A stretch of 55,190 bases of DNA, from NCBI GenBank assembly GCA_964416025.1, contig CAYQCJ010000004.1, positions 1-55,190 of the forward strand, given 5' to 3'. The position numbers were made by a program, and so were the translations under genes. This document shows positions 2,671 to 55,190 of the stretch, piece by piece; the stretch's first letter is position 1, and the number at the start of each line of letters is the position of its first letter. The stretch comes from an uncultured Staphylococcaceae bacterium. GTDB taxonomy: Bacteria > Bacillota_I > Bacilli_A > RFN20 > CAG-826. A model generated the notes under the pieces. That model was not told the DNA's origin, did not search any database, and saw only the letters and a program-made list of their open reading frames with translations.

Positions 2671-5600
2671 CTACCAAATAACAGGTGCTCCATCAACATA
2701 GTGCCAATACCTAACAGTAGATTGTGTCTTATCTGCTGTGGTTTCGGCATAATAAATAGTTTCTTTAGTGTTTTTATTCCAAACATTGTTTACCCACTTA
2801 TTGGTGCTTGTATCAGCATAATGAAGAGCAACAAAATCGGCGTATTTATCTGATACATAAATATAAGCTTTCTTAGAATCTGTTCCGTTTCCAAAAGCTT
2901 CACTACTAATACTTATATTTGTTGAAATTGGCAAGACAACGCCAGTATAAGCACAATTTCTAAAAGCAGCTTCACCTATACTTAAGATATTTCCAGTTCT
3001 CGTTGTTTTATCATCAACGAAATTTAATATGGTACTTGCATTAGATGTTGTACCTGCTGTATCGACAGATTTAAAATTTGCTAAGTTTCCGCAACCATCA
3101 AATGTTGAGTTACTAACATACTTTAATGATGTAGGTAATGTAATAGTAGTTAAAGAACCAGAATCTTGAAATGCCCACCCATACATACTAATTAATCCAT
3201 TATTAAAATTAATGGTTGTTAAAGGCGAATTTTTGAAAAGATCCATACCAGTAATATTACATCCAGAATATGTTGAGAATGTTGTTTTAGCTCTAGGAAT
3301 ACAATATAAAACAGTTTGATTGCATGTTGTTCTTGAACTATTTACATATAAACATCCATCATAAGAAGTTAAATTTGTACCAACCAATTCAGCAGAATTA
3401 TAGGCAGTTCCTAAAGAAAAACCTCTACAATCTTCAATTCTACAAAAAACATTTAATCTTGCTGCCGTGCTCGTATCTGGAGCCTTATTAACATAATAAT
3501 TAGCATCAGGGAAATAAATATCAACAGCAGTTGGAAGTACGACATATGTTAACTTAGTTTTCATCAAACCATTATCACAAATGTAAGCTAAACTAGTTGG
3601 AAATACATAATTTGCATTATATGTTGTTCCTGTATAACCGACAATTTGTAAAGTATTATTGCATGCATAAAAACCAGATAATCCAATAAACGAGATTGTA
3701 TTTGGTAATTCAAATTTCTTAACGCTTGTGTCACCAGCAAATGCACCTTGTCCAATTTCAGTGACAGTATAAGAATTCCCATTATATACATGAGTTTCAG
3801 CAACTTTTATTGTTGCTGCATTTGCTGTTAAACCTAAAAAGGCATTAGTTTTAACATATCCCGTAATTGTAATGTGATTACCATTAGGTTCTTTCGTATT
3901 TTCTTTCTTTGTAGCATCATCAAAAATATAATAATAACCTTGGGTAGTTTCGCGCATTATATTGGTTTCAGCACCAATATTATAGTAAATACCATTTTTT
4001 AATGAACTAAATGGAGCACCATTATAGGACGATCCTTGATTTTGAGCATTACCATCAATTTTTCCATATGAACCAGTTGCACCTTCAAAATAAATAGTTA
4101 ACATCGAATTACTAGCAATAGAACCATCGATTTTATTTATCGATAAAGGAATATAAACATAAGGTAATTTTTGACAAGTGCCAAAAATATTGCCACCTAG
4201 TTCATTAACCCAGTTACCCCAATTAATCTTGCTTAAATTAGTACAAGAATCAAAAGCATTATCATTAATTTTGGTAGCTGAAGTTGAAGCGAGCGTTGCG
4301 TTAGCAGCATCTTTAAAAGTTAAAGTTGTGAAAAAATTACAATTTTGAAATGCATTGTTACCAATTCTTTTGTAATAACTAGTAGTACCAGTATTATCCA
4401 TTAAACTCGAAGGAATAATAAGTTCCACATTTTTGGTTGGAGTTATGCCTTTACCACAACTATTAAAAGCATTAGTCCCAATCGAAGCTAAATTACTTGT
4501 ATTAGTAGATGCCCCTTCAAACTCTAAAGAAGCAACTTTATATGTGTTTTGAAAAGCGCTATCTTCGATTGTAACAACCGATTTAGGAATTTTAAGACCA
4601 GTAATAGCAGTACAATTTAAAAACGCTTCTTTCTTAATTGTAATAAGAGAAGAAGGAAAAGTAACTGTTGTTAAAGCAGTACAATTATTAAAGGCGTCTT
4701 CGCCAATTATAGTTAATGAGGTAGCAGCACTCATATCAACAGAAGTAATTTTATTATTGTAATAAAAACTTTCTTTTCTAACTTCAACAACTGGTTTTCC
4801 ACCGATTGTAGCTGGAATTGTAATAGCTGTTCCATAACCAACATATCTAGTAATATAAGATTCTTCACCTTGCGAAATATATATAAAATCATTTTCAGTT
4901 CCGATAGCATCAATGCTCAAAATTACTTGAAGATAAGCAGTTGAATCGGTCGATGTACCGGTTTTATTTCCAATTCTATTCCAATCAGTATTGTAAGTTG
5001 TAGGAATAGCATCGGCTTGTAAATAAATTTCCGCTCCACTAATTCCCCTAAAAGCATATTTTTCAATGGTTACTGTAGAAATATTAGGTATATGAATATA
5101 GACAACACTCTCACAATGATAGAAAGCGTTCTCTCTAATTGTGGTAACTGTTGTTGGAATAATAATATCTTGTAGATATGTGCAATATGAAAATGCACTA
5201 GAACAAATCTCAATTAAACCATTTGGTAATTTGAAGTTTCCTACTGTGCCATCGTTAAGTCCGCCCAAATAATCGCAACCAGCAAAAGCATGATCCCAAA
5301 TCTTGGTAACAATCGAAGTATCAGCAAAACTAAAATAAGTTAAGTCTTTACAATCCTCGAATGTTCCTGGAAATATCTCAGTTGGTCCGCTAGGAAAAGT
5401 AAACGAAGTAAAGTTTGAATGCGTAAATGCTTGTTTACCCATCACAGTTAAATTAGTAGGCCATTGTGAAATGCTGACAAAATCAATATTACTAAAAGCA
5501 TTATTAGCAATCGAAGTAATTGTGTAAACTGTTCCTGCATCATCAACATAAGTATCTGGAAGTTTAATATAAGTTGTTTCAGTAGCATCTCCATAAGCAA

Positions 5601-11852: not shown

Positions 11853-11926
11853 TGGTGCCCCCTCGCAGAGTCGAACTACGCATTGATCCTTACCATGGAT
11901 CCGTTATACCGATTAACTAAGGGGGC
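11853..11926 (-). tRNA. tRNA-Thr(GGT)
   Basis: Cloverleaf: acceptor GCCCCCT/AGGGGGC + ACCA, D-stem GTTA/TAAC, anticodon stem GATCC/GGATC with loop ATGGTAA, T-loop TTCGACT; downstream hairpin GTTCGAT/ATCGGAC + U-tract. Confidence 0.95.
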
Positions 11927-15190: not shown

Positions 15191-16489
15191 TTAGGCTTCT
15201 TCGCCATATAAATCATAAACAAAAGCGTTCGTAATTTTAATTAAAACTTCATCACCAAGCTTATGTTTTTTAGTATTTTTTAAGAATACATTTCCATCAA
15301 TATCATCAGGTGCATTATAAACACATCTTACTAAATAATCGCCCTTATCTTCGCCGATTATAATTCCTTTAAAAACCTTACCAACCAATTCCTTATTAAG
15401 TGAATAAGAAATCTCTGCTTGAAGTTGCATTACTTCATCTTTTCTCTTATCTTTAGTTTTTTGTTGTAATTGATGAGGTAAATTATAAGCTTTAGTACCT
15501 TCTTCTTTAGAATAAGTAAAAACACCAAGATGATTAAATTTAACTGTTGAAATAAAATCCTTTAATTCTTGAACATCTTTTTCGGTTTCGCCAGGAAAAC
15601 CAACAATAACAGTCGTTCTTAAAATAGCATCAGGTATATATTCTTTAATCTTTTTAAATAATGCTAACATCGATTCTTTTGTATCTCTTCTATTCATAGA
15701 TTTAAGAATTTTGTCATTAGCATGTTGAATTGGGACATCAAAATAATGTGGGAATTTAGGGCTACTAGCGATTAATTTTAACAAATCATCACTAATTCCT
15801 TCTGGATAAAGATATAAACATCTAATCGATTCAATTCCTTCAATATCATTTAAACGAGTTAATAAAGTAACTAAATTAACATCCTTGTCTTTTAAATCTT
15901 TTCCATAACTTGTTGGATCTTGTCCGATAACAACAATTTCTTTTACGCCTTCTTTAGCGATCTTTTTAGTATATTCAACAAGCATATCTTCATCGTAACT
16001 AACGAAACGACCACGAATAAATGGGATCGCACAAAAGGCACAAAAATTATTGCATCCTTCACTAATTTTTAAATAAGCAGTATATTTTGGAGTGCTTAAA
16101 ATACGACTTGAAAAGTCAATATCCCCTGCAAATCCCCCTTCTTTTTTATTAAATAGCTTATTTATTAATGTTGGAAGATTCTTATATTCTTCTTTAAAAC
16201 GAATCCATAAAGAGACTTCAGGAATTTCTTTTTTAAGTTCATCGTAATATCTTTCAACTAAGCAACCAGTAACAATTAATTTCTTTTTATATTTAGTGGC
16301 ATCTAAAATTGTATTAATACCTTCAATCTTAGCACTAAGAATAAATCCACAAGTATTTATGATGATGGCATCACTTTCGTTAGGGTTAGAAACGATTTGA
16401 TAACCATTCATTTTTAAAGAAGCTAAAATAGCTTCACTATCGACAGTGTTCTTAACACAACCTAAAGAAATTAAACAAATCTTTATCAT
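15191..16489 (-). CDS. rimO: Ribosomal protein S12 methylthiotransferase RimO
   Basis: SLGCVKNTVDSE, INTCGFI, KISEGCNNFCAFCAIPFIRG radical-SAM motif, LRTTVIVGFPGETE, C-terminal TRAM region. Confidence 0.95.
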   Translation of the reverse strand: MIKICLISLGCVKNTVDSEAILASLKMNGYQIVSNPNESDAIIINTCGFILSAKIEGINTILDATKYKKKLIVTGCLVERYYDELKKEIPEVSLWIRFKEEYKNLPTLINKLFNKKEGGFAGDIDFSSRILSTPKYTAYLKISEGCNNFCAFCAIPFIRGRFVSYDEDMLVEYTKKIAKEGVKEIVVIGQDPTSYGKDLKDKDVNLVTLLTRLNDIEGIESIRCLYLYPEGISDDLLKLIASSPKFPHYFDVPIQHANDKILKSMNRRDTKESMLALFKKIKEYIPDAILRTTVIVGFPGETEKDVQELKDFISTVKFNHLGVFTYSKEEGTKAYNLPHQLQQKTKDKRKDEVMQLQAEISYSLNKELVGKVFKGIIIGEDKGDYLVRCVYNAPDDIDGNVFLKNTKKHKLGDEVLIKITNAFVYDLYGEEA

Positions 16490-30686: not shown

Positions 30687-31556
30687 TTATTTATAGGCGA
30701 TTTTAAGTCTTTCTAAAGAATCAATAAAATATTGTTTAGACCAATTTAATAATGAATTTTGTTCTTCAATAAAGTCTTTTACATCGTTCTTTGCTTCTTC
30801 ATAATCAATTACGTTAAATTTATCGGTTAATAATTGTTTCAATAAATCCAAATCTAATATAGTAAATTGTTCAATTAATTTGGCCTTAATCAAATTATTT
30901 TCTAAATATTTTAAATTTATAGAAGCGCCTTTACCTATGTAAAATAGATAATCATACAAGTCTCTTCCTTTAACTCTATTTTTCCAAGGCCTAGATAAAA
31001 TGGCCGAAATCTTTCCAGCAAACAAAGACGGAATATCTAAAGTTTTAACATCGCCAAAAAATGGCTCACTCACATTCAACCAAGAATAATTGGCGCCATA
31101 TGGTGGTTCAATATCTACCTCAAACTTTACTTTTATAAGTGAATTGTGATTAATATTTTTAATCTTCATATCTGGAAAAAGAACTGTAAGAGTTTCAATA
31201 GTGTTTTCTTTTAAGAAAGCGCTTCTTGTATCACTAGCAACAATTTTTTCTCTTTGTTCTAGAGTTATTTTTAATCCGTAAATATCGAATATTTTTTTAA
31301 TTTCTTGAAAATATCTATCCCAAGAGAATTTTTCATCTTTTGCAATTAAACAAAAATCTAAATCTTCCGAAAATCGTGGTAAACCATAAAAAATTCTTAA
31401 ACAAGTACCGCCATAAAAGGCAGCATTAGAGAAAAAATTTGTCTTAGCTAATGAAGCTAAAATAGTTTCTTGAACCACTTCTTTAATTTTGTTTTCTAAT
31501 TCAACATCGTTGCGCGGATTTTTAGATAAGACCATTTCAGTTAATTTGTTGTTCAT
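30687..31556 (-). CDS. abiEii: AbiEii-family nucleotidyltransferase (type IV TA toxin)
   Basis: AFYGGTCLRIFYGLPRFSEDLDF, KGRDLYD; start reassigned to MNNK after GGAGA. Confidence 0.9.
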   Translation of the reverse strand: MNNKLTEMVLSKNPRNDVELENKIKEVVQETILASLAKTNFFSNAAFYGGTCLRIFYGLPRFSEDLDFCLIAKDEKFSWDRYFQEIKKIFDIYGLKITLEQREKIVASDTRSAFLKENTIETLTVLFPDMKIKNINHNSLIKVKFEVDIEPPYGANYSWLNVSEPFFGDVKTLDIPSLFAGKISAILSRPWKNRVKGRDLYDYLFYIGKGASINLKYLENNLIKAKLIEQFTILDLDLLKQLLTDKFNVIDYEEAKNDVKDFIEEQNSLLNWSKQYFIDSLERLKIAYK

Positions 31557-32127
31557 CGTTATCTCCAATCATTTTTAAAAGCAAATTAGTGTTTTTGCAT
31601 TTGTATTTTGGCAGCAAAAATCTAAGATCTTTTTTCGAAAGTTTATTAAACTCATATATATCAATTCTTAAATCCACAAATAGCAAATTCTTTAGTATCT
31701 TAAGTGAAGATACAGGTTTTAAAGTATACAAAAAATCAGCTAAAGCTTTTTCTTTGCTTGCAATTTGAACTCCATTTTCTATAGTTGTAACACCAAAAGG
31801 AAAACATATTATTGGTATATTTTGATACCTATATAATCCGAAGGGTGTTTTGTATTGTTTTGATTTATGTTTTCCAGTAATTGCGCTAGTAATCAAATAT
31901 ACTCTTTCAGGAATTAAACCATAAAAAGACAAGGCATAATCAAAAGAAATGTAACTTGGGCGAATTATTGCATTAGCAATTTTTTTAATATCTTCATTTG
32001 TATTGTCTGAATACAAATTTCGGCAAATTCTAATTAAGCGACCGCTCAAAATTTCTGTTTCAATCTTACTATGTAAATTAGAATAATCTTTAAATTTATC
32101 ATTTAAATATTTAGTATTAAAAATCAC
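31537..32127 (-). CDS. abiEi: AbiEi-family antitoxin / transcriptional regulator
   Basis: LIRICRNLY, PSYISFDYALSFYGLIPE, IASKEKALAD; overlaps abiEii. Confidence 0.9.
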   Translation of the reverse strand: MIFNTKYLNDKFKDYSNLHSKIETEILSGRLIRICRNLYSDNTNEDIKKIANAIIRPSYISFDYALSFYGLIPERVYLITSAITGKHKSKQYKTPFGLYRYQNIPIICFPFGVTTIENGVQIASKEKALADFLYTLKPVSSLKILKNLLFVDLRIDIYEFNKLSKKDLRFLLPKYKCKNTNLLLKMIGDNDEQQIN

Positions 32128-37402: not shown

Positions 37403-38662
37403 CTATTTCTTTTCGTTTGCTAATGCGGTAGCTTCTTTTTGCATAACTGGTAAGCTTTCTTTTAACCCACCATTTCCAGAAGCGTAAAGCTCATTAGCGT
37501 ATTCTAATAACTCTTTTTTGTGTTGTCTCAGATAACGCATCACTTTTTTCTCTCTTTTATTGACTATTTTAAATATGCCAGTTTCACGTCTATTAAGCAT
37601 CTTTTGGCTAGCACATGAACTACCTTCATAGTAGTATTTTTTGCCATAAATCAGTGTGCGAGTTAATAGCCTATCAGCAAGGTCATGCGCCTTTATATTG
37701 TCGCTAAATGCACCAATTTCTATTTTTCCAAATATTATCTTTTCCGCACACTCACCACCTAGAATAATGTCAATCTTTTCGAATCTTTTTTCTACTGTGT
37801 CTTTCTTTTCATCAGTGTCGTAGATATTGGCAACACCACCGGTACTATTAAAGTTAGTCTTGAAACACTTAAAGTCTTTGCTATATTTCATACTCACTAG
37901 GTAATGCCCAGCTTCATGGATTGCTACATTATAATCCTTTTTGTTACTCGTATTAGACACATATTCATCTAGGACGATTCGAGAATACGACTTTTCTAAG
38001 TCTTCTAGACTTGCATTACTTTTGTGTAATAAATATGCATCGTTACATATTTGCTTGATATCAATGCAACTCACACCACAACAAATCAAGCTGATATATT
38101 TGATTTCATCTTCCTTTAGGTTGATACCAAGATTTGTTAGCATCTTCTTAAACAATAATCTTTTGGTATTCGTATCAGGCTTTTCGATAAAGATTCGACG
38201 ATCTATCCTGCCGTTTCTAAGTAAACTGCTTGGCAATTCTAATGGGTCTCGGTTTGTTGCTGCTATTGAGAAAACTATTCCACTATTGTTATACCCATCT
38301 AATTCAGTCTGTAAAGCTCTTAGACATCTTTGATCGTTAGTAATAAGATGATCGATTTCATCGATTATTACGACTGCTTTTTTGCATTTTCTCGCGGCGG
38401 CATACTTATTAGTTATTTCACCATAAGTATCTTGGGTATTTTCAATTACGAATGTTTCGCAATTGAAAGCTTTGGCAAATTCTCTCATAATAAGAGTTTT
38501 GCCGCACCCTTGGTCTCCATAGAGTAATAAACCTCTTGGGAGACTGATTTTTTTATTGTTCAATAATTCATCATCATTAAACCATTCACATATCGTCCCT
38601 AATTCCTCTTTGACATCATCGTATCCAATTACGGTGTCCAAAAAACTATTATCAAGTTTCAT
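37403..38662 (-). CDS. Membrane-less FtsH-like AAA+ ATPase / M41 metalloprotease, copy 1
   Basis: GDQGCGKT, IIDEID, LLRNGRIDR, HEAGH, GAFSD; no TM segment. Confidence 0.85.
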   Translation of the reverse strand: MKLDNSFLDTVIGYDDVKEELGTICEWFNDDELLNNKKISLPRGLLLYGDQGCGKTLIMREFAKAFNCETFVIENTQDTYGEITNKYAAARKCKKAVVIIDEIDHLITNDQRCLRALQTELDGYNNSGIVFSIAATNRDPLELPSSLLRNGRIDRRIFIEKPDTNTKRLLFKKMLTNLGINLKEDEIKYISLICCGVSCIDIKQICNDAYLLHKSNASLEDLEKSYSRIVLDEYVSNTSNKKDYNVAIHEAGHYLVSMKYSKDFKCFKTNFNSTGGVANIYDTDEKKDTVEKRFEKIDIILGGECAEKIIFGKIEIGAFSDNIKAHDLADRLLTRTLIYGKKYYYEGSSCASQKMLNRRETGIFKIVNKREKKVMRYLRQHKKELLEYANELYASGNGGLKESLPVMQKEATALANEKK

Positions 38663-38739
38663 ATTTCTTGACCTCCTTAAAAATAAATTATTATTTATAA
38701 ACTGTATTAAGAATAAATTAGCAAACCAATGACTACTAA

Positions 38740-39279
38740 CTAATCATCAGCTAAGAACCTTTTCTTTAATTTCGTTGCCTCCTCTTTAATATTGTCTTCT
38801 AACGTTACATAAGTTCCATCATCTTTGAAGAATTTGCCATAACTCTTTGGGCCATCACTTTTCATTTGAGCATAGTTATTTTTGACTCTAGCTTCACTTA
38901 AGAATTCTTTATCTTGACAGATATCAAGACACTTAGTCATAAGATCTGTAACTTTTACCGGGCCTTTATCACTAAGTAAAAAATAACTCTTCAATAAGCG
39001 ACTACATATAAAAGAATGATTCATAGACCATCTTCTAAGTCTTACGTATTCACGAGAAACAGTATAATCTGTAGGATTATCTAAAGTAGTGAATTTAAGA
39101 ACATTCGAACTCATACTGTTATCATTAGAAGCATATCTTCTCGCTTCCCTAAGAAAGACTCTAGAGATATAGGATTTAACTAAGTTGTCTAAGGCCTTAT
39201 CTTGTTCTTCATGAGCTAACTCTAATGCAAGTTTGAATTTACCATAAGTTTCTTCATCTAATTCTATACTGATGTTCAT
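38740..39279 (-). CDS. Hypothetical protein with an N-terminal ribbon-helix-helix-like DNA-binding segment
   Basis: MNISIELDEETYGKFKLAL...ALDNLVKSYI pattern; GGAG RBS. Confidence 0.55.
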   Translation of the reverse strand: MNISIELDEETYGKFKLALELAHEEQDKALDNLVKSYISRVFLREARRYASNDNSMSSNVLKFTTLDNPTDYTVSREYVRLRRWSMNHSFICSRLLKSYFLLSDKGPVKVTDLMTKCLDICQDKEFLSEARVKNNYAQMKSDGPKSYGKFFKDDGTYVTLEDNIKEEATKLKKRFLADD

Positions 39280-39629
39280 ACTAAGCTCCTTTATAATAAA
39301 TGAACCAACGACGTGAAATAAAATGATATTTAGTATTTTTATTTTTTAGTGGATATTTATTTTTAGTTTTTATATTATATGCACTGATTTTTGATAAATC
39401 AACAAATTTAACATTATTTCACATATTTTTTAAATTTATACCTTGATTTACATCATTTAGTTTTTAGTAATATTTAGTAATATATTAAATTTTAAAGTGA
39501 TTAGGCACCAATAGACTTTTTTATTTAAATAGAGTAGGTCTGCTTCTTATTTAAGTTTTCATTATCTTAAAATAAGTACTTTGAATGCGGTTTCTAGAAT
39601 CCACACTTTATCAATCAATAATTATTCAC

Positions 39630-39941
39630 TTAATTAACAAGGATTGACTATTGCTTTTCTTTTTCTATATCATAAGCAAGTTCTCATAAAATTCTTGGTT
39701 CAATAAATTCTTATTCATCGTAAACAAAACACAGAAAAATATTAAACTATAGAACTCATTATCATTTTTGCAATGTATATAGGAAAAATCACCAATTTCA
39801 TAATTAATTAAAAATCTATATTATGACTTAAATTAAATATATCAACACTGCTTTTTGTTGTTTCATAAAGTATTTGGTTTCTCCAAAATGGATCTTCTTC
39901 ATTTACAACACAACTCATACATTTAAATATCTCATATTCAT
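39630..39941 (-). pseudogene. Decayed small ORF directly downstream of the S-box-like leader
   Basis: Strong RBS TAAGGAGG then ATG, but the frame stops after 6-8 codons; protein-like text continues in shifted frames (MSCVVNEEDPFWRNQILYETTKSS..., LINYEIGDFSYIHCKNDNEFYSL..., EFIEPRIL*ELAYDIEKEK). Confidence 0.45.
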
Positions 39942-39968
39942 GCCTCCTTATTTCTTAACATAAAGAGG

Positions 39969-40000
39969 AATATAAAAGCCCATCGTAATGATGGGCTTTA
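39969..40000 (-). terminator. Riboswitch expression-platform terminator
   Basis: AAAGCCCATC-ATTAC-GATGGGCTTT-TATATT; its 5' arm CCCAUCAUU is complementary to the aptamer 3' end AAUGAUGGG. Confidence 0.85.
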
Positions 40001-40019
40001 TTTAATAATTTAAACATAT

Positions 40020-40106
40020 CCCATCATTCAAGCTTTAGCACTTTGCTACATTGTAGTAAGTTGCTGACGGATCATCGGGCTTGCCCCTAACCGTTCTCTT
40101 TATGGT
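40020..40106 (-). ncRNA. SAM-I (S-box)-like riboswitch aptamer lacking P4
   Basis: Manual fold: P1 CCAU/AUGG, AAAGAG junction, P2a/kink-turn (GAACGG/CCGUC, GAUGA), P2b GGG/CCC with loop CAAG pairing to CUUG (pseudoknot), P3 AGCAACU/AGUGCU. Confidence 0.75.
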
Positions 40107-40113
40107 AATTCTT

Positions 40114-40141
40114 AGTATAAATGTTAAATCTAGAATTTCAA
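40114..40141 (-). promoter_or_regulatory. Sigma-A-type promoter for the riboswitch leader
   Basis: TTGAAA-16 nt-TATACT placing +1 near 40107, at the start of P1. Confidence 0.65.
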
Positions 40142-40178
40142 CTTATTTTATTTTTAAAAACAAATATCGTTTATGTTT

Positions 40179-41597
40179 CTAATTTGTTTTTTTAGGATTA
40201 TTAAGATTATAAATCCTATTTTTAAATCTTTTTTGCGCATCGATATCGGCTTGATTTTGCATTTCACTAGTTAAAGCATTCATTGCTTTGATAAACTGAT
40301 TAAAATTATCTTTGTCTTGCTCATCAATTTCTGAATTCAAAGATTCAAGATTATCATAAACTACATTATATTTGATTAAATTATAATTCTCACCAAACAG
40401 ACTATTTTTAATTTCATCACGCATAATATCAGCTCTATAATTTGGGCAAAGAACAAAATAATGGGTACTTTTGTTTGATTCAAGTTTCTTTTTTTCAGTA
40501 ATTAAATAATATTTTGCTAGCTGATTAATATTAATGTTTTTTGTTCTGCAATTATTAAATTGTTCTTGAAAAACACGCCTTTGATTTTCGTCTTCAACAT
40601 TATTTATCTCTTTTTGTACTCCATCGCAAGTTCCGTTTAATAAGGACTCAACCTTATTTTCAATAACAATTATTTCTTTATCCGTTTCTATCAAAAGATC
40701 GATATTGTTTTTTTCTCTAGTCACCAATATATTGTTGAAATCTCTTCCCTCAAAATCTTTATTTAAACAAATTAAAAAATTATCAAAAACACTTTTTTCA
40801 TTTTTTATAAAATATGCAAGCATGTTAGAAAATGCTTTTTCTTGTTTTTCGTTTCCGGTGATTTTGAAAATATTCCACCATTTATCTTGTTCAAGTTCTG
40901 TTGGACATGATAATTTTTCTGCAAACTTTCCTTTATCCCAATTCGCTTGCTCATCAATAAAATCTAATAGCTCTTGGTTATTTTTACCATTTAAATATGA
41001 TTTTAAAGATTCTTGAGCAAGATTTATATTTATTTTAATACTGTTCTGCTTATCTTGAGTTTTAAAACCAATAATGAATTTTGGTTGGCTTATTTTATCA
41101 ACTGTACCATTTGGTTGGCTTATTTTATCAACTGTACCATTTGCTTTAAACGTTATAAAAATATTTGTCTCAGGTTTGGAAACTTCATTTTCGCTCATTA
41201 TATCACTTAAAAACTGACCACCATACTTAATACCTTCTTTTTTAATTTCTTTAATTTGAATACCGTTATTTGTCTCATTTTTTCCGAGTTTCTCACCAGT
41301 TATTGAACCAGGAAAAAATTCAACATTACGAGCAACGCCAAGAATTTGAAAGCGATCTTTATAATCTTTGTTTTTAACAACAAAAAGAACATCAATTTGG
41401 CAGTTACTATAGTCAATGCCCTTCAAATTCTTGTTATCTTTCTTAAAAAAACCATTCGCATTTAAATAAATATAATTTTCCTCATTATCCGCCTTATAAA
41501 AATTTATTATTTCAAATCCAATATTTTTTTTATTTAAAAGAAAACTTGAATTTTCAGGAAACAGCCTGTCTATAACAATAATTCTATCTTTGCTCAT
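40179..41597 (-). CDS. PD-(D/E)XK nuclease family protein (PDDEXK_4-like) with an N-terminal extension
   Basis: EKAFSNMLAYF, REKNNIDLLIE...IIVIENKV, QLAKY; start reassigned to MSKDR. Confidence 0.8.
   Translation of the reverse strand: MSKDRIIVIDRLFPENSSFLLNKKNIGFEIINFYKADNEENYIYLNANGFFKKDNKNLKGIDYSNCQIDVLFVVKNKDYKDRFQILGVARNVEFFPGSITGEKLGKNETNNGIQIKEIKKEGIKYGGQFLSDIMSENEVSKPETNIFITFKANGTVDKISQPNGTVDKISQPKFIIGFKTQDKQNSIKININLAQESLKSYLNGKNNQELLDFIDEQANWDKGKFAEKLSCPTELEQDKWWNIFKITGNEKQEKAFSNMLAYFIKNEKSVFDNFLICLNKDFEGRDFNNILVTREKNNIDLLIETDKEIIVIENKVESLLNGTCDGVQKEINNVEDENQRRVFQEQFNNCRTKNININQLAKYYLITEKKKLESNKSTHYFVLCPNYRADIMRDEIKNSLFGENYNLIKYNVVYDNLESLNSEIDEQDKDNFNQFIKAMNALTSEMQNQADIDAQKRFKNRIYNLNNPKKTN
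41081..41140. repeat. Exact in-frame 30-bp tandem duplication
   Basis: ttggttggcttattttatcaactgtaccat x2, encoding NGTVDKISQP twice. Confidence 0.95.
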
Positions 41598-41787
41598 AAT
41601 TAATAATTCCTTTCTCAGCAACAATTTATATGTAATCGTAAACTTTTATAAAAGAGTTTTTCTTTTAAAAATTCATAGTCACAATAATTCAATAATTTTA
41701 TCACCACCACATTTTTATCTATCAATCACAACATATCTTTTTTTATATTCTTCATGCCTTCCTATGTTGCTAATTATTATGTTGAAA

Positions 41788-42784: not shown

Positions 42785-44029
42785 TTATATATTCCAATTC
42801 TCTGGAATATCTTTATAATCTATACTTCCTTTTTTATACAAAATATCAGCTAAAAAACACAACTCTGACTTATGTTTTTTCAGATATCTATAAGTTTGTT
42901 TACTCAGTTTATTTAATAAGATAGCTGTCTTTTTTCTTATTCGACGATTAAACTTAAAATCAACCAAATCAATGTCACTAGAATTAGGTGAGCCGCTTTT
43001 AAAATCGTCTAATTTATATATGCAAGTCCTAGAAATTAATCCGATGCACTCTTCATGAGCGGAAAATAAATCACGATACGAACCAACATCTTTAAATCCA
43101 AAAATTATTTTTTCTGCATTTAATCCCCCTAAACTAATCCTTATTTTATCTAATCCTCCTTCTATCGAATTTCTTTCGATCTTGCTATTTGCTATAGTCA
43201 CTCCTCCACAATCATCAAAATATGATTTATAAAACATTGCTGTGTCTTTTGCTTTTAAGGACATCAAGATATGCCCCGCTTCATGAATCGCTACTCTTTT
43301 ATCTTTATATTTTGTTGGATCAGAAAATGAGTTATTAGCTATCATATCCATCGATTTGTTTATATCTTGATTACTTAATTTTTTGCCATTTCTTAAATAA
43401 GCATCATTTATAATATTTCTTAAAATAACTGGATTTTTTCCACTTAATAAATTAGAAAGAATATCCAAATCAATATTTGTCTTATCGACACAAAATTCAT
43501 CCAAATATTTATTTAAGAAATAATTGGTTTTCTCACTATCTAACCTAGAAAAACAAAATGTGCGATCAATTCGGCCATTTCTTCTTAATTCTGCAGGTAT
43601 TAGAGTGATATAATTAGCTGCTAATAATACTAATATATGACCACTTTTATCAATACCATCAAGTTCGCTTTTTAATAATCTATTAATCTCTTCTTTCTTA
43701 CCTCCAGCCATTAAACTATCTAATTCATCTATAGCGATAATTGCTCCTATATCCTTCCTGGCTTTTTTAAATATGGTGCTAATCTCTTTTAAAATGTTGT
43801 TATCACTTCCATTCAATATGTAATGAGGATAATCAAATTCCTTGATATATTCCCTAATTATTAGGGTTTTACCACATCCAGCCTCACCATAAAATAAAAT
43901 ACCTTTTGGTATATTAACATCCTTATTGTTATAAATATCTGGATCTATAAACCAATCATGAATCACTTTTAATTCTTTCTTAATTTCATAGTTCCCATAC
44001 ACGTTTTTTAAAAACTCATCTTCACTCAT
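42785..44029 (-). CDS. Membrane-less FtsH-like AAA+ ATPase / M41 metalloprotease, copy 2
   Basis: GEAGCGKT, IAIDELD, LRRNGRIDR, HEAGH, GSYRD; start reassigned to MSEDEF; no TM segment. Confidence 0.85.
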   Translation of the reverse strand: MSEDEFLKNVYGNYEIKKELKVIHDWFIDPDIYNNKDVNIPKGILFYGEAGCGKTLIIREYIKEFDYPHYILNGSDNNILKEISTIFKKARKDIGAIIAIDELDSLMAGGKKEEINRLLKSELDGIDKSGHILVLLAANYITLIPAELRRNGRIDRTFCFSRLDSEKTNYFLNKYLDEFCVDKTNIDLDILSNLLSGKNPVILRNIINDAYLRNGKKLSNQDINKSMDMIANNSFSDPTKYKDKRVAIHEAGHILMSLKAKDTAMFYKSYFDDCGGVTIANSKIERNSIEGGLDKIRISLGGLNAEKIIFGFKDVGSYRDLFSAHEECIGLISRTCIYKLDDFKSGSPNSSDIDLVDFKFNRRIRKKTAILLNKLSKQTYRYLKKHKSELCFLADILYKKGSIDYKDIPENWNI

Positions 44030-44049
44030 TTTAATTATTCCTTCTTTTC

Positions 44050-44838
44050 TTAATTTAATAATAACCAACCATTTTTATAGACATGAATATCATCTCTATT
44101 TAAATCCACGATAAGCCAAGTTATATCTTTTATGCCTCTCATGTTTTTAAAAATATTAACGATATTTTCTATGCCTTTTTTCCACTCATTAACACTAGTT
44201 ACCCACTCTTTATGGTATTCCGTATGTGTATAATCATTAGCAAAACAAATATATACTAACTTAGCCTTAGCACCATTTCTTTTTAACATATTAACTAAAC
44301 ACAATCTGTTTGCTAATTGATAATAATCACTATCGATATATTCATCTGATCCTACATATTTTCTTAAAGATTCTTCGATGAGTAAAATCGAATCTATATT
44401 CGTCGCTAAACATGGCCCAAGCGATTCAGTTATATGGGATTTAGCTTCTATTACATAAATAGTTTTGCTCTCTCCAATACCAAATCCATCAAGTTTTGGA
44501 CCTCTTTCAGGCCAAAACCTACTCCAATCTATTTTGTTTTCTATAGCTTCAGATAAAATTTGAGCACTATATTCTTTAAATTCATCTTTAATAATTGGAG
44601 AGTAGATTTTTATTTCATCTTTAATGTGTTTTCTAAGGAAACCTCCATTTCCGATATTATGAAGATATTCATTAGTAAATATTTGTAGTTCAAATTGACT
44701 GCCCCTATCCGCTCTATAGTCTGATTCGTACACTTCATCATAAACATAACTAGTCTCATTGTGCATTTCTTCAGTAGCGATTTTCGTACCATCGCTATCA
44801 TTTCTAACACCTTCCTTGTTGTTATTTTTATAAAACAT
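44050..44838 (-). CDS. Putative PD-(D/E)XK-fold nuclease (conserved hypothetical)
   Basis: GSQ, FWPERGPKLDG...YVIEAKSHITE, YYQLANRL; AGGAGG RBS. Confidence 0.7.
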   Translation of the reverse strand: MFYKNNNKEGVRNDSDGTKIATEEMHNETSYVYDEVYESDYRADRGSQFELQIFTNEYLHNIGNGGFLRKHIKDEIKIYSPIIKDEFKEYSAQILSEAIENKIDWSRFWPERGPKLDGFGIGESKTIYVIEAKSHITESLGPCLATNIDSILLIEESLRKYVGSDEYIDSDYYQLANRLCLVNMLKRNGAKAKLVYICFANDYTHTEYHKEWVTSVNEWKKGIENIVNIFKNMRGIKDITWLIVDLNRDDIHVYKNGWLLLN

Positions 44839-53529: not shown

Positions 53530-54112
53530 CTATTTAGCTTTCTTTTCTTCCAAAACATTTTCAACAAATAAATTAACTATGTCTGAATATGGGTCATCAT
53601 TTCCAATATTATTTTGCGAAATGGTATTTTTAATTGCTATTTCTCTTTTATTCTTTAATAAAGAAAATACATCCTTACTTTTCTTGTATTCAGGTATATT
53701 TTTTCTTAACTCAATTAATAATTGTGCTGAATTTAAGCTGTGTGAATGGCTTACAAAGTGATTTAAAAACCATAATTCAAAACAAGGATTAGAAAAAACG
53801 ATGGTTATATCTTTTGGAAGAAATTTCTTTATTTCTTTTATTTTAGCAACCTCAATTTTGTCATCATCACCATCAACAAAAATGAGTGTTTTATCCGTTT
53901 TTGTATTGTATCCATAATATTTTCTTTTTGTAGTTATTGCTTTGATAATATTTTCACAATTTGTATCGTTTGTAGGCAAAAAACATAATACTATAATTTT
54001 TATCAACCGGTTCAAAATGATTTAAATATATGTTCTCGGTTTTATTAAACTTACCTTCAAAAGATATTATTATCAAACTCCTTTGTTTAAACTTTTTGCC
54101 CACCTTCATCAT
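53530..54112 (-). pseudogene. rloB: RloB-family (AbiLii-like TOPRIM) gene split by a +1 frameshift
   Basis: Upstream frame from ATG 54112 gives ISFEGKFNKTENIYLNHF and switches at the T6 run 53978-53983 into the frame with FVDGD and SNPCFELWFLNHF. Confidence 0.8.
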
Positions 54113-54113
54113 C

Positions 54114-55190
54114 TTATTTGCTTCTCATTTCTAAAGAATCAATATTTGGAGAAGTATTAAATCTTCCGACAACATAGGCTTTTTCTAAATTTTCAGAACT
54201 TCTTAAATGAAAATCACTTAACGATCTAATATATGTCGAACATTTTTCAGAATCTTTATAAACAAAATTAATTTGTTCTCTTCTAAATAAATTTAAGTCA
54301 AGCAAAGAAACTTCGTGAGAACTAAATATTAACTGAGAATTAAAGGTATTAATATTTTCATCAAGGAAGCATTGAATTATAAATTTTGTTAAATCAGGAT
54401 GAAAAGACGATTCTAATTCGTCCACTATTAAAACTGAAGGCATCGATAGAACGCGATATAAAAACTCAGAGAGAATTAATATTTTACGTGTTCCTAAAGA
54501 TTCGTTTGTAAATTCTAAAGAATATTTTTTATTACCAACTTTGTGATCAAAATATAAAAGATTGGAAGGTTGAATTATAAACGGAATATTTTGATTAATA
54601 TCTCTTTTATTCTTTTCTATATGAAAATCATTAATATTAAAATCAGCAGCATTTAGCAACTTTATCGTAAATTCTTTTAACTTTTCATCGATATTCTCAG
54701 TTTTTGGAAAAGCATTAAAGTTACTATCAAACACTGGTGTAATATTTATTAATCTATTGGCAAAAAAAGCATAAGCATCTGATAAATCATCAATTTCGAA
54801 ATTAGCAAACATCGATAAAAAAGTCTTATCTGGTTTAATAGAAACTTTAAGGGCATTTAATAATTGGATATTAGAAACATTGGACCCAAAGACTACATTT
54901 ATCGAATTGTCAGTATCAATTTTTCTTTCAAAAATTAAAGAAAACTTTTGTGAAGTTAATTTTTCTAAACGTTCAAATAAAATTTTTGAAGCATCATACT
55001 TAACAAAATATTTAAATATAGTCGACTCTTCATTATCTAAGGAAAATTCTATTCCGAAAGATATTGGCTTATTTTTAATATCACAAAAAGCAAAAGGAGT
55101 ATAAGGCAAAGGATTATTCGGCAAAAGAGGAACAACTAGTTCTCTGAGTGCCGCAAAAGATTTGATAATATTACTTTTTCCAGAAGCATT
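54114..55190 (-). CDS. AAA_21 / RloA-like ATPase, 5'-truncated by the window end
   Basis: Frame is open to the window edge with NASGKSN (Walker A); ESLGTRK signature, VDELESSFHP, QLIFSSH. Confidence 0.9.
   Translation of the reverse strand, partial: NASGKSNIIKSFAALRELVVPLLPNNPLPYTPFAFCDIKNKPISFGIEFSLDNEESTIFKYFVKYDASKILFERLEKLTSQKFSLIFERKIDTDNSINVVFGSNVSNIQLLNALKVSIKPDKTFLSMFANFEIDDLSDAYAFFANRLINITPVFDSNFNAFPKTENIDEKLKEFTIKLLNAADFNINDFHIEKNKRDINQNIPFIIQPSNLLYFDHKVGNKKYSLEFTNESLGTRKILILSEFLYRVLSMPSVLIVDELESSFHPDLTKFIIQCFLDENINTFNSQLIFSSHEVSLLDLNLFRREQINFVYKDSEKCSTYIRSLSDFHLRSSENLEKAYVVGRFNTSPNIDSLEMRSK

Follow-up and report, generated by a model that had tools for sequence, protein, structure and literature searches.

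The 55,190-nt stretch of DNA analysed here (contig CAYQCJ010000004.1 of an uncultured Staphylococcaceae bacterium; hereafter the window, to whose whole length all coordinates refer) carries on its minus strand a leader of the S-adenosylmethionine (SAM) riboswitch clan that lacks the P4 hairpin. Textbooks present SAM riboswitches as regulators of sulfur metabolism, and the genes downstream of this one encode a soluble FtsH-like protease and its neighbours. Our preferred reading, to which we give a probability of roughly 55%, is that the leader is a P4-less SAM OFF riboswitch in working order, that it still gates read-through transcription into the FtsH-like module, and that it forms part of a recurrent placement of such leaders.

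Identity and anatomy of the aptamer

The aptamer lies on the minus strand at 40018..40108. This segment (40108-40018) scored 45.7 bits with the Rfam SAM family RF00162, whose gathering score is 44.4 (E 2.6e-7), as the sole Rfam match across the 55-kb window, and scored 80.2 bits with R1, a P4-less model of our own. The alignment spans the entire RF00162 model except for 17 P4 positions, all of which are deleted. A search of 38600-40300 for other RNA families gave nothing above chance-level matches, and Rfam clan competition retained RF00162. A first-pass annotation of this DNA had described a P4-less SAM-I-like leader on this strand and proposed RF00162 and related SAM models as a check; all of the elements it described were found in place, and the covariance model did score the RNA above the gathering score.

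The P1 helix pairs 40105-40102 with 40024-40021, contains just 4-5 standard pairs and leads into a J1/2 segment that reads AAGAG. P2a, a kink-turn and P2b occupy 40094-40066, and P3, with a loop of 3 nt (AAU), occupies 40065-40037. The kink-turn of P2 and the pseudoknot between the P2 loop and J3/4 are both found in the RNA, which reads UUAGGG...CCCGAUGAU; CAAG on the 5' strand of the P2 loop (40083-40080) pairs with CUUG in J3/4 (40032-40029), the pseudoknot that had been read in the first pass and that covaries across homologues. The four-way junction of SAM-I is lacking, with merely 6 nt (AGCUUG) and no P4 hairpin between GUGCUAA and AAUGAU. A degenerate core pattern in which GUGCNAA and AANRAU may lie no more than 12 nt apart matched once in the window and in none of 100 shuffles.

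The core reads AUA-AAGAG in place of the canonical AUC-AAGAG, as the first-pass annotation had remarked, and this proved to be a hallmark of the whole subclass of leaders described below. The window core departs from the SAM-I consensus at a few tertiary-contact positions (A8, G24 and G64), of which G24 is a minority variant inside the same subclass. The changes in P3 are compensatory (C-G to U-A) and are common to two other leaders (L094 and L148).

Comparison with the known families places the RNA more closely. It shares with SAM-I the P1 helix, the AAGAG of J1/2, the kink-turn P2, the L2:J3/4 pseudoknot, a P3 with GCAAC and GUGC, the SAM-contacting bases, and the OFF logic through a terminator and an antiterminator. 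Unlike SAM-I, it has a three-way rather than a four-way junction, a short P1 in which A8 replaces the usual C8-G pair, and an additional platform that would sequester the Shine-Dalgarno sequence (SD) and is complementary to the 5' strand of P1 and J1/2. The window leader and most of its subclass also differ from SAM-I in preceding genes outside methionine metabolism. SAM-IV (RF00634) and SAM-I/IV (RF01725), which complete the SAM-I clan, likewise combine a SAM-I-like binding core with a junction that has no P4 in it. SAM-IV is characterised by a 3' hairpin P5, a second pseudoknot PK-2 and a four-nucleotide turn instead of a kink-turn, while PK-1 is missing from SAM-I/IV, whose P2 is undivided (PMC6890682). 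The window RNA, in contrast, retains PK-1 and a kink-turn of six nucleotides. The short P3 loop leaves no room for the second pseudoknot of SAM-IV, and the expression platform follows P1 directly with no extra hairpin before it, so that the 3' hairpin and second pseudoknot of RF00634 are both missing. Nor does it have the undivided, pseudoknot-free P2 of RF01725, since the kink-turn divides P2 and the pseudoknot covaries. Judged by its sequence, the window RNA is a variant within the SAM-I clan and not a plain member, being caught by the Rfam model while lacking the four-way junction.

Expression platforms

A promoter-like site, TTGAAA-16-TATACT (40114..40141, minus strand; 10/12 in a consensus scan), ends 5 nt upstream of the first base of the aptamer. 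Such sites are no rarer in the window than in shuffled sequence, so the case for a promoter, as the first-pass annotation had called it, is the position of the site at 40141-40114. At the other end of the aptamer, the putative switching strand AAUGAUGGG (40020..40028, minus strand), read from the sequence as J4/1 plus the 3' strand of P1, is complementary from 40028 to 40020 to CCCAUCAUU at 39995-39987. The latter forms the 5' arm of an intrinsic terminator, AAAGCCCAUC-AUUAC-GAUGGGCUUU followed by UAUAUU (39969..39999, minus strand), with its stem at 39999-39975 and a U-rich tail reaching to 39969. Pairing of the two strands would create a 9-bp antiterminator, which at -16.1 kcal/mol has the lowest energy when the leader is folded without constraints and is nearly equal to the terminator fold (-15.3 kcal/mol). 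A generic terminator scan missed the terminator because an A/U extension was counted as stem; by eye and by predicted folding, 39999-39969 is a good intrinsic terminator, and related leaders carry homologous terminators at the same place. The complementarity between the 3' strand of P1 and the 5' arm of the terminator agrees with the OFF-with-ligand layout proposed in the first pass, and makes up a complete switch without P4.

The leader also contains a second, translational platform that was absent from that annotation. Directly 3' of the terminator lies CCUCUUUAUG (39959..39968, minus strand), a candidate anti-SD and anti-aptamer strand, with the SD 9 nt further on. This strand is the reverse complement of CAUAAAGAG in the 5' strand of P1 and J1/2, with a complementary run of 9 nt, and it also pairs with the SD to give a hairpin that folds at -11.0 kcal/mol. 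The SD itself, AAGGAGG (39943..39949, minus strand), has the position and sequence of the regulated ribosome-binding sites of homologous leaders, in which a full-length gene begins 7-9 nt downstream. When the 11 nt ending at J1/2 were compared with the downstream 100 nt in 68 leaders, the best complementary run averaged 7.8 nt, against 5.87 +/- 0.15 nt for shuffled 5' strands. The anti-SD pairing moreover covaries, leaders with CCAUAGAGAG having CUCUCUAUGG, and the arrangement recurs in most related leaders. As read from the letters, the promoter, aptamer, terminator, antiterminator, anti-SD and SD of the window leader all appear intact.

A subclass of P4-less leaders and its covariation

A core-pattern scan of one genome per GTDB species yielded at least 119 loci. 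At least 68 of these, besides the window, have no more than 7 nt between J3/4 and P1 and hence no P4. A subclass-specific scan contributed a further 18 metagenome loci and one viral contig. The leader counts are biased by the exact-match patterns used, and those from the genome scan are counts among the matches listed; about 70 distinct P4-less leaders were gathered among these matches. When 27 other leaders were tested against RF00162, 26 also passed, with 46.9-78.8 bits.

In a MAFFT alignment of 56 leaders, 94.8% of the cells assigned to P1, P2a, P2b, P3 and the pseudoknot were paired, compared to 30-37% in slid controls. The covariation score of this alignment was 0.383 against 0.136 in shuffles, and none of 500 shuffles reached 0.383. 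Similar results were obtained from 78 model-aligned leaders (70 distinct), with 95.1% of cells paired and a covariation score of 0.360 against 0.116 when shuffled. In this larger set P2a was 99.7% and the pseudoknot 100% paired, and three of the four pseudoknot pairs covary across the 70 distinct leaders; over both sets, pairing of the pseudoknot was 99.5-100%. The search pattern itself imposes part of this conservation. The pattern left P1, P2a, both variable pseudoknot pairs and the base of P3 free, and these covary. At the level of sequence comparison, covariation backs every helix of the P4-less group and its pseudoknot.

The subclass to which the window belongs is marked by A at position 8 together with the CAAG:CUUG pseudoknot, a signature carried by 50 distinct leaders among the matches listed. 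This P4-less SAM-I subclass is common in gut and rumen anaerobes. Two leaders come from bins labelled Escherichia coli (L082) and Methanomethylophilaceae archaeon (L067). Both are typed like those of Gastranaerophilales and gut Bacillota metagenome-assembled genomes (MAGs), and the leader of L067 is identical to that of an unclassified bacterial MAG (L083); these two bins probably contain mis-assigned contigs. Our literature searches found no paper in which SAM riboswitches are connected with defence islands, SAM lyase or IS1595, and no description of a P4-less SAM-I, a dual platform or a non-metabolic regulon, a silence that is weak evidence of novelty and no proof of it.

Ligand

The positions at which solved SAM-I structures show contacts to SAM (A6, U7, G11, C44, A45, U57, G58, A87 and U88 in T. 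tengcongensis numbering) are all present in the window when it is aligned to the Rfam consensus, which is a sequence-level test. Of 61 P4-less genome leaders among the matches listed, 20 have metK directly behind them; other first genes in these loci encode homocysteine S-methyltransferase (3), PALP enzymes (4), MetQ, MetN and parts of MetH/MTHFR. The subclass of the window heads metK in 8 of its 50 distinct leaders among the matches listed, from 8 genomes, and one of these metK leaders (L094) has an aptamer with the unusual P3 of the window. The window leader presumably senses SAM, and because its subclass heads metK and keeps the SAM-contacting bases, a ligand other than SAM is unlikely.

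The FtsH-like module and its recurrence behind the leader

The first intact gene downstream of the switch is p179 (38740..39279, minus strand), which encodes 179 aa and matches no family: searches of Pfam, PADLOC, PHROGs and PDB sequences gave no match, and a single-sequence AlphaFold model was too poor to be used (predicted local distance difference test score 41.7). An exact look-up of its relatives returned two short contigs, one of which (L001) is identical to the window, while a homology search returned the query alone. The following gene (37403..38662, minus strand) encodes a 419-aa soluble AAA+/M41 zinc protease, FtsH419, recognised by Pfam AAA (2.9e-20) and Peptidase_M41 (1.5e-12), with intact Walker A, Walker B and HEAGH motifs. 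Like FtsH, FtsH419 has an AAA+ module and an M41 zinc site (HEAGH), but it is only 27-29% identical to true FtsH proteins and lacks the N-terminal FtsH_ext domain (PF06480) that 672-aa FtsH relatives have. p179 and the protease form a conserved pair, being 54% and 53% identical to adjacent genes of another locus (L122). After a gap of 235 nt the protease gene is followed by genes that Pfam assigns to a MoxR-type AAA_3 ATPase (37167-35992, minus strand) and a DUF2201 metallopeptidase/VWA-like protein (36023-34785, minus strand).

To recover related modules, tblastn searches were run with the window proteins and other short FtsH-like proteins. The subclass leader was found upstream of an FtsH-like protease in five loci besides the window. 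In a Ruminococcaceae MAG (L016) and in Anaerovoracaceae (L099), the leader is followed by a leucine-rich-repeat (LRR) protein of 212-220 aa and then the protease, the two LRR proteins being 50% identical; the MoxR and DUF2201 pair of the window is also present in the latter locus. In an Erysipelotrichaceae MAG (L029), three small open reading frames (ORFs) separate leader and protease. In L162 a long array of genes on one strand follows the leader, among them the protease gene and a gene like p481, the gene upstream of the switch in the window; in L164 just 66 nt separate the end of the aptamer from the start codon of the protease. Short FtsH-like proteins (roughly 410-480 aa) fall into about two dozen 90%-identity clusters among the matches to the window protease. 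Given how rare these soluble proteases are, their co-occurrence with six of 50 leaders looks, as an informal judgement, well beyond chance. The association is recurrent and not general: when nine FtsH-like proteins were looked up, none had a subclass leader in the recovered DNA. In plasmid and phage collections, only distant true FtsH proteins (27-31% identity) were found.

Several further observations were made around these modules. One of the nine proteins looked up has a sub-threshold SAM-like leader (L166:205-325; Rfam 26.9 bits, R1 18.8 bits), in which P1, J1/2, P3, a tiny P4 and a terminator can be made out and another hairpin takes the place of the kink-turn and pseudoknot part of P2. 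It lies upstream of a gene for 105 aa, an AsnC-type helix-turn-helix protein, an RNA-polymerase-alpha-C-terminal-domain-like protein and the FtsH-like protease. Eight contigs from different samples that carry the protein P0041 (L138-L145) each start 214-277 nt upstream of the FtsH-like gene, which suggests that a repeat immediately before these bases broke the assembly; the bases retained in L140, the one contig of the eight that was read, show no trace of a riboswitch. Three unrelated loci encode an AAA protein of about 675-680 aa close to their FtsH-like modules (L016:5832-7853, L099:3090-5132, with 680 aa, and L125:243-2285), and a domain scan that covered the first and third found AAA_lid_6 in both. 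Its recurrence hints at a larger conserved island.

The wider regulon of the subclass

The genes headed by subclass leaders are not confined to methionine and SAM metabolism, as the survey of downstream genes suggested in the first pass has now established. Displacement from a methionine gene consequently fails as a general explanation of these leaders. At least 10 distinct subclass leaders precede IS1595-type transposases whose proteins are 35-70% identical (IS1595/ISXO2 loci L018, L019, L067, L077, L146, L147, L152, L155, L157 and L163; e.g. L077:3925-5253). These leaders have both terminator and anti-SD and lie 45-115 nt upstream of the transposase gene, and one of them, the single match in a scan of viral contigs, is on an IMG/VR contig. 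From the sequence arrangement, expression of the IS1595 transposases looks riboswitch-controlled. At least seven subclass leaders precede Sel1-repeat proteins (38-44% identical), each gene having a SAM leader of its own (L048, L149, L150, L153, L154, L161 and L159). The last of these loci has two leaders 3 kb apart on one strand (L159:2094-2180 and 5100-5186), and their identical expression platforms and 5' coding ends point to a segmental duplication of leader and gene.

Other products encoded behind the subclass leader are FGase-family hydrolases/amidohydrolases (at least 4 loci), an alpha/beta-hydrolase, an AAA_2 ATPase (two homologues, 52% identical), SseB-like proteins (29% identical), a 300-aa family of unknown function (39% identical), an ADP-ribosylglycohydrolase and a DUF6508...poly(A)-polymerase-like operon. 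The leader has been kept before homologues that have diverged to 29-52% amino-acid identity, which argues for function and not accident, and leaders of non-methionine genes score as high with R1 as metK leaders. The placement of these leaders suggests that low SAM would turn on the non-metabolic genes behind them.

A four-gene operon encoding MoxR (AAA_5), proteins of about 140 and 450 aa and a divergent MetK-like protein was observed in two loci (L103:661-5064 and L125:7511-11754). The MetK-like protein is 49% identical between the two and about 27% identical to true MetK. The operon has a SAM leader in L103; in L125 it has none and adjoins an FtsH-like gene.

Genomic surroundings of the switch

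The gene upstream of the switch, p481 (40179..41624, minus strand), encodes 481 aa with weak PD-(D/E)XK-type matches (PADLOC PDC-S26) and has a homologue, 25% identical, between leader and FtsH-like gene in L162. It ends 37 nt before the -35 box, and the terminator scan found no terminator between the two, in agreement with the first-pass remark that no strong terminator separates this nuclease gene from the leader; read-through from p481 would enter the switch. Further upstream lies a paralogous module of a 262-aa gene and a 427-aa FtsH-like protease (42785..44838, minus strand; identified by Pfam and blastp). The window therefore contains two modules of a small ORFan and a soluble FtsH-like protease (42785-44838 and 37403-39279), 3.5 kb apart with the riboswitch in between. 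Their proteases are 35% identical and their partner proteins unrelated.

The block is bracketed by an RloB-like protein with an AAA_21 ATPase (53530-55124) and an AbiEii nucleotidyltransferase (30687-31568). Together with the PD-(D/E)XK proteins, these bear out the earlier description of the surroundings as defence-island-like. PADLOC-DB 2.0 recognised no described defence system: p179 gave no match, MoxR and DUF2201 no meaningful match, and FtsH419 matched through its AAA domain to IetA alone (1.4e-15). This is a weak match to one component of IetAS, and no IetS-type partner is present. The window DNA is chromosomal; it carries a tRNA-Thr(GGU) gene (11853-11926) and a RimO methylthiotransferase gene (15191-16489) whose product has its best named relatives, 63-66% identical, in MAGs labelled Bacilli, Mollicutes and Candidatus Onthovivens. 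RimO thus assigns the window to an uncultured lineage of low-G+C gut Bacilli.

The first-pass annotation had seen no Met/Cys/SAM gene near the leader, and none was found in the window by tblastn with MetK or by Pfam searches covering 43 of the 52 ORFs that encode 100 aa or more; no gene of the kind typical of RF00162 was recognised downstream of the switch. A metK displaced further downstream was considered and rejected, there being no MetK match in the window, nor downstream of the leaders in L016, L029 and L099.

Mechanism and alternative explanations

In the mechanism that we propose, bound SAM would hold P1, the pseudoknot and P3 together and allow the terminator to form, and in transcripts that escape termination CCUCUUUAUG would pair with the SD. 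At low SAM, the 3' strand of P1 would instead pair with the 5' arm of the terminator as an antiterminator, and the freed 5' strand of P1 with J1/2 would capture the anti-SD and expose the SD. In the window, the gene that once belonged to the regulated ribosome-binding site would have decayed. The switch would still gate transcription, started at its own promoter or reading through from the upstream genes for p262, FtsH427, p256 and p481, across an AT-rich spacer into p179, FtsH419 and possibly MoxR and DUF2201. More widely, accessory and selfish genes under the same leader would be expressed together with metK when SAM falls.

Directly behind the regulated SD lies a vestigial ORF (39915..39941, minus strand; from the sequence and the ORF list) that reads M(NM)RYLNV and then stops. 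With ATG codons at 39941 and 39935 and its stop at 39917-39915 it has 6-8 codons, and a 36-aa ORF (39918-39808) overlaps this stop with its start. It is followed by an AT-rich spacer of about 635 nt (39280..39914, minus strand; about 25% G+C) with stops in all three same-strand frames and no long ORF. Three-frame translation, as well as tblastx and blastn against the collected loci and the window, recognised no decayed gene in 39975-39280, and tblastn of the spacer with every leader-proximal protein, IS1595 transposases included, gave no match. Terminator scanning and folding revealed no strong terminator in the spacer. The cognate ORF is dead and the next intact gene starts some 690 nt beyond the terminator; the switch would be able to reach the island genes by transcriptional read-through only.

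The lack of a strong terminator in the spacer speaks for a switch that still works on the FtsH-like module, and other circumstances count against it. The ORF behind the SD is dead, the next intact gene begins about 690 nt past the terminator, and the spacer holds two weak hairpins with U-rich tails after them. A promoter-like TTGATT-17-TATAAT is present upstream of p179 (39402-39374, minus strand), and the aptamer is near the bottom of its family, with 45.7 bits in Rfam and rank 74 of 78 with R1. Eight other FtsH-like proteins have no subclass leader in the recovered surrounding DNA; several of these, including the closest relative, are on contigs that end too near the gene to judge, the contig of that closest relative (L122) beginning inside the p179 homologue with the upstream region unseen.

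One explanation that stays in play is that the leader is an orphan relic, which terminates most transcripts and regulates nothing useful while p179 and FtsH419 are expressed from their own promoter. It draws on the dead ORF, the long spacer, the promoter-like site upstream of p179 and the low score of the aptamer, and the eight FtsH-like proteins that have no subclass leader in the recovered DNA fit it as well. Against this, all of the parts of the leader are intact and its P3 changes are compensatory, beside a coding region that has decayed beyond recognition, which suggests that the leader is still under selection. The synteny of leader and FtsH-like gene also recurs in the five other loci. 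We consider a relic unlikely, at about one chance in four the most serious of the alternatives to a functional switch.

A somewhat less probable explanation accepts that the switch is functional and assigns it a nutritional logic, in which a cytosolic AAA+ protease and its helpers would be switched on for amino-acid recycling when methionine or SAM runs low, within an extended Met/SAM starvation regulon. The control of metK by the same subclass is in line with this, as are the potential salvage hydrolases behind the leaders (the FGase-family amidohydrolases of at least 4 loci and the alpha/beta-hydrolase) and the divergent MetK-like gene that closes the leader-headed MoxR operon of L103 and, in L125, adjoins an FtsH-like gene. 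The protease modules, however, have variable ORFan partners and sit among restriction-modification (RM), WYL, PD-(D/E)XK and AbiE genes, and the IS1595 transposases and arrays of Sel1-like paralogues under the same leader are difficult to reconcile with salvage.

Phages are known to deplete SAM, and one may speculate, along the lines of the first-pass annotation, that the leader guards the SAM pool. A phage SAM lyase or MetK inhibitor would collapse SAM to disarm RM or BREX, upon which the leader would lift both termination and SD sequestration and activate the FtsH-like cassettes, perhaps also the Sel1-like and MoxR-MetK-like operons, IS1595 having adopted the same RNA as a stress cue. We regard this proposal as doubtful, and rate it below the nutritional one. 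It is compatible with the island context, although the module matches no PADLOC system.

Much less probable still is a role in trans, in which the terminated leader (about 140 nt) would work as a small RNA in the way reported for SreA and SreB, two SAM riboswitch elements of Listeria. With the cognate ORF gone and both promoter and terminator intact, the terminated leader would be the main product at normal SAM; the homologous leaders, however, are all placed as ordinary cis-regulators directly before genes. Finally, the first-pass suggestion that the variant core, with P4 missing and A8, G24 and G64 deviating from the SAM-I consensus, senses another ligand is scarcely credible, given that the presumed SAM-contacting nucleotides are all retained in the Rfam-consensus alignment, metK stands behind leaders of this core in 8 genomes, further Met/SAM genes follow other P4-less leaders, and G24 is a minority variant within the subclass.

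Conclusions

The functional switch that we favour for the window is a partly orphaned example, and the recurrent pattern to which it belongs is the more interesting result. A minimal, P4-less form of the SAM-I riboswitch, combining a transcriptional with a translational platform, is placed before non-metabolic genes, among them soluble FtsH-like proteases, transposases, repeat proteins and MoxR operons, where it has apparently been kept by selection. The 91-nt aptamer is a natural minimal SAM-I core that could serve structural work. If these genes do respond to SAM, the regulon of a classic riboswitch would be far wider in gut Bacillota and neighbouring phyla than has been assumed, and cells or mobile elements would possess a simple way to read SAM depletion.

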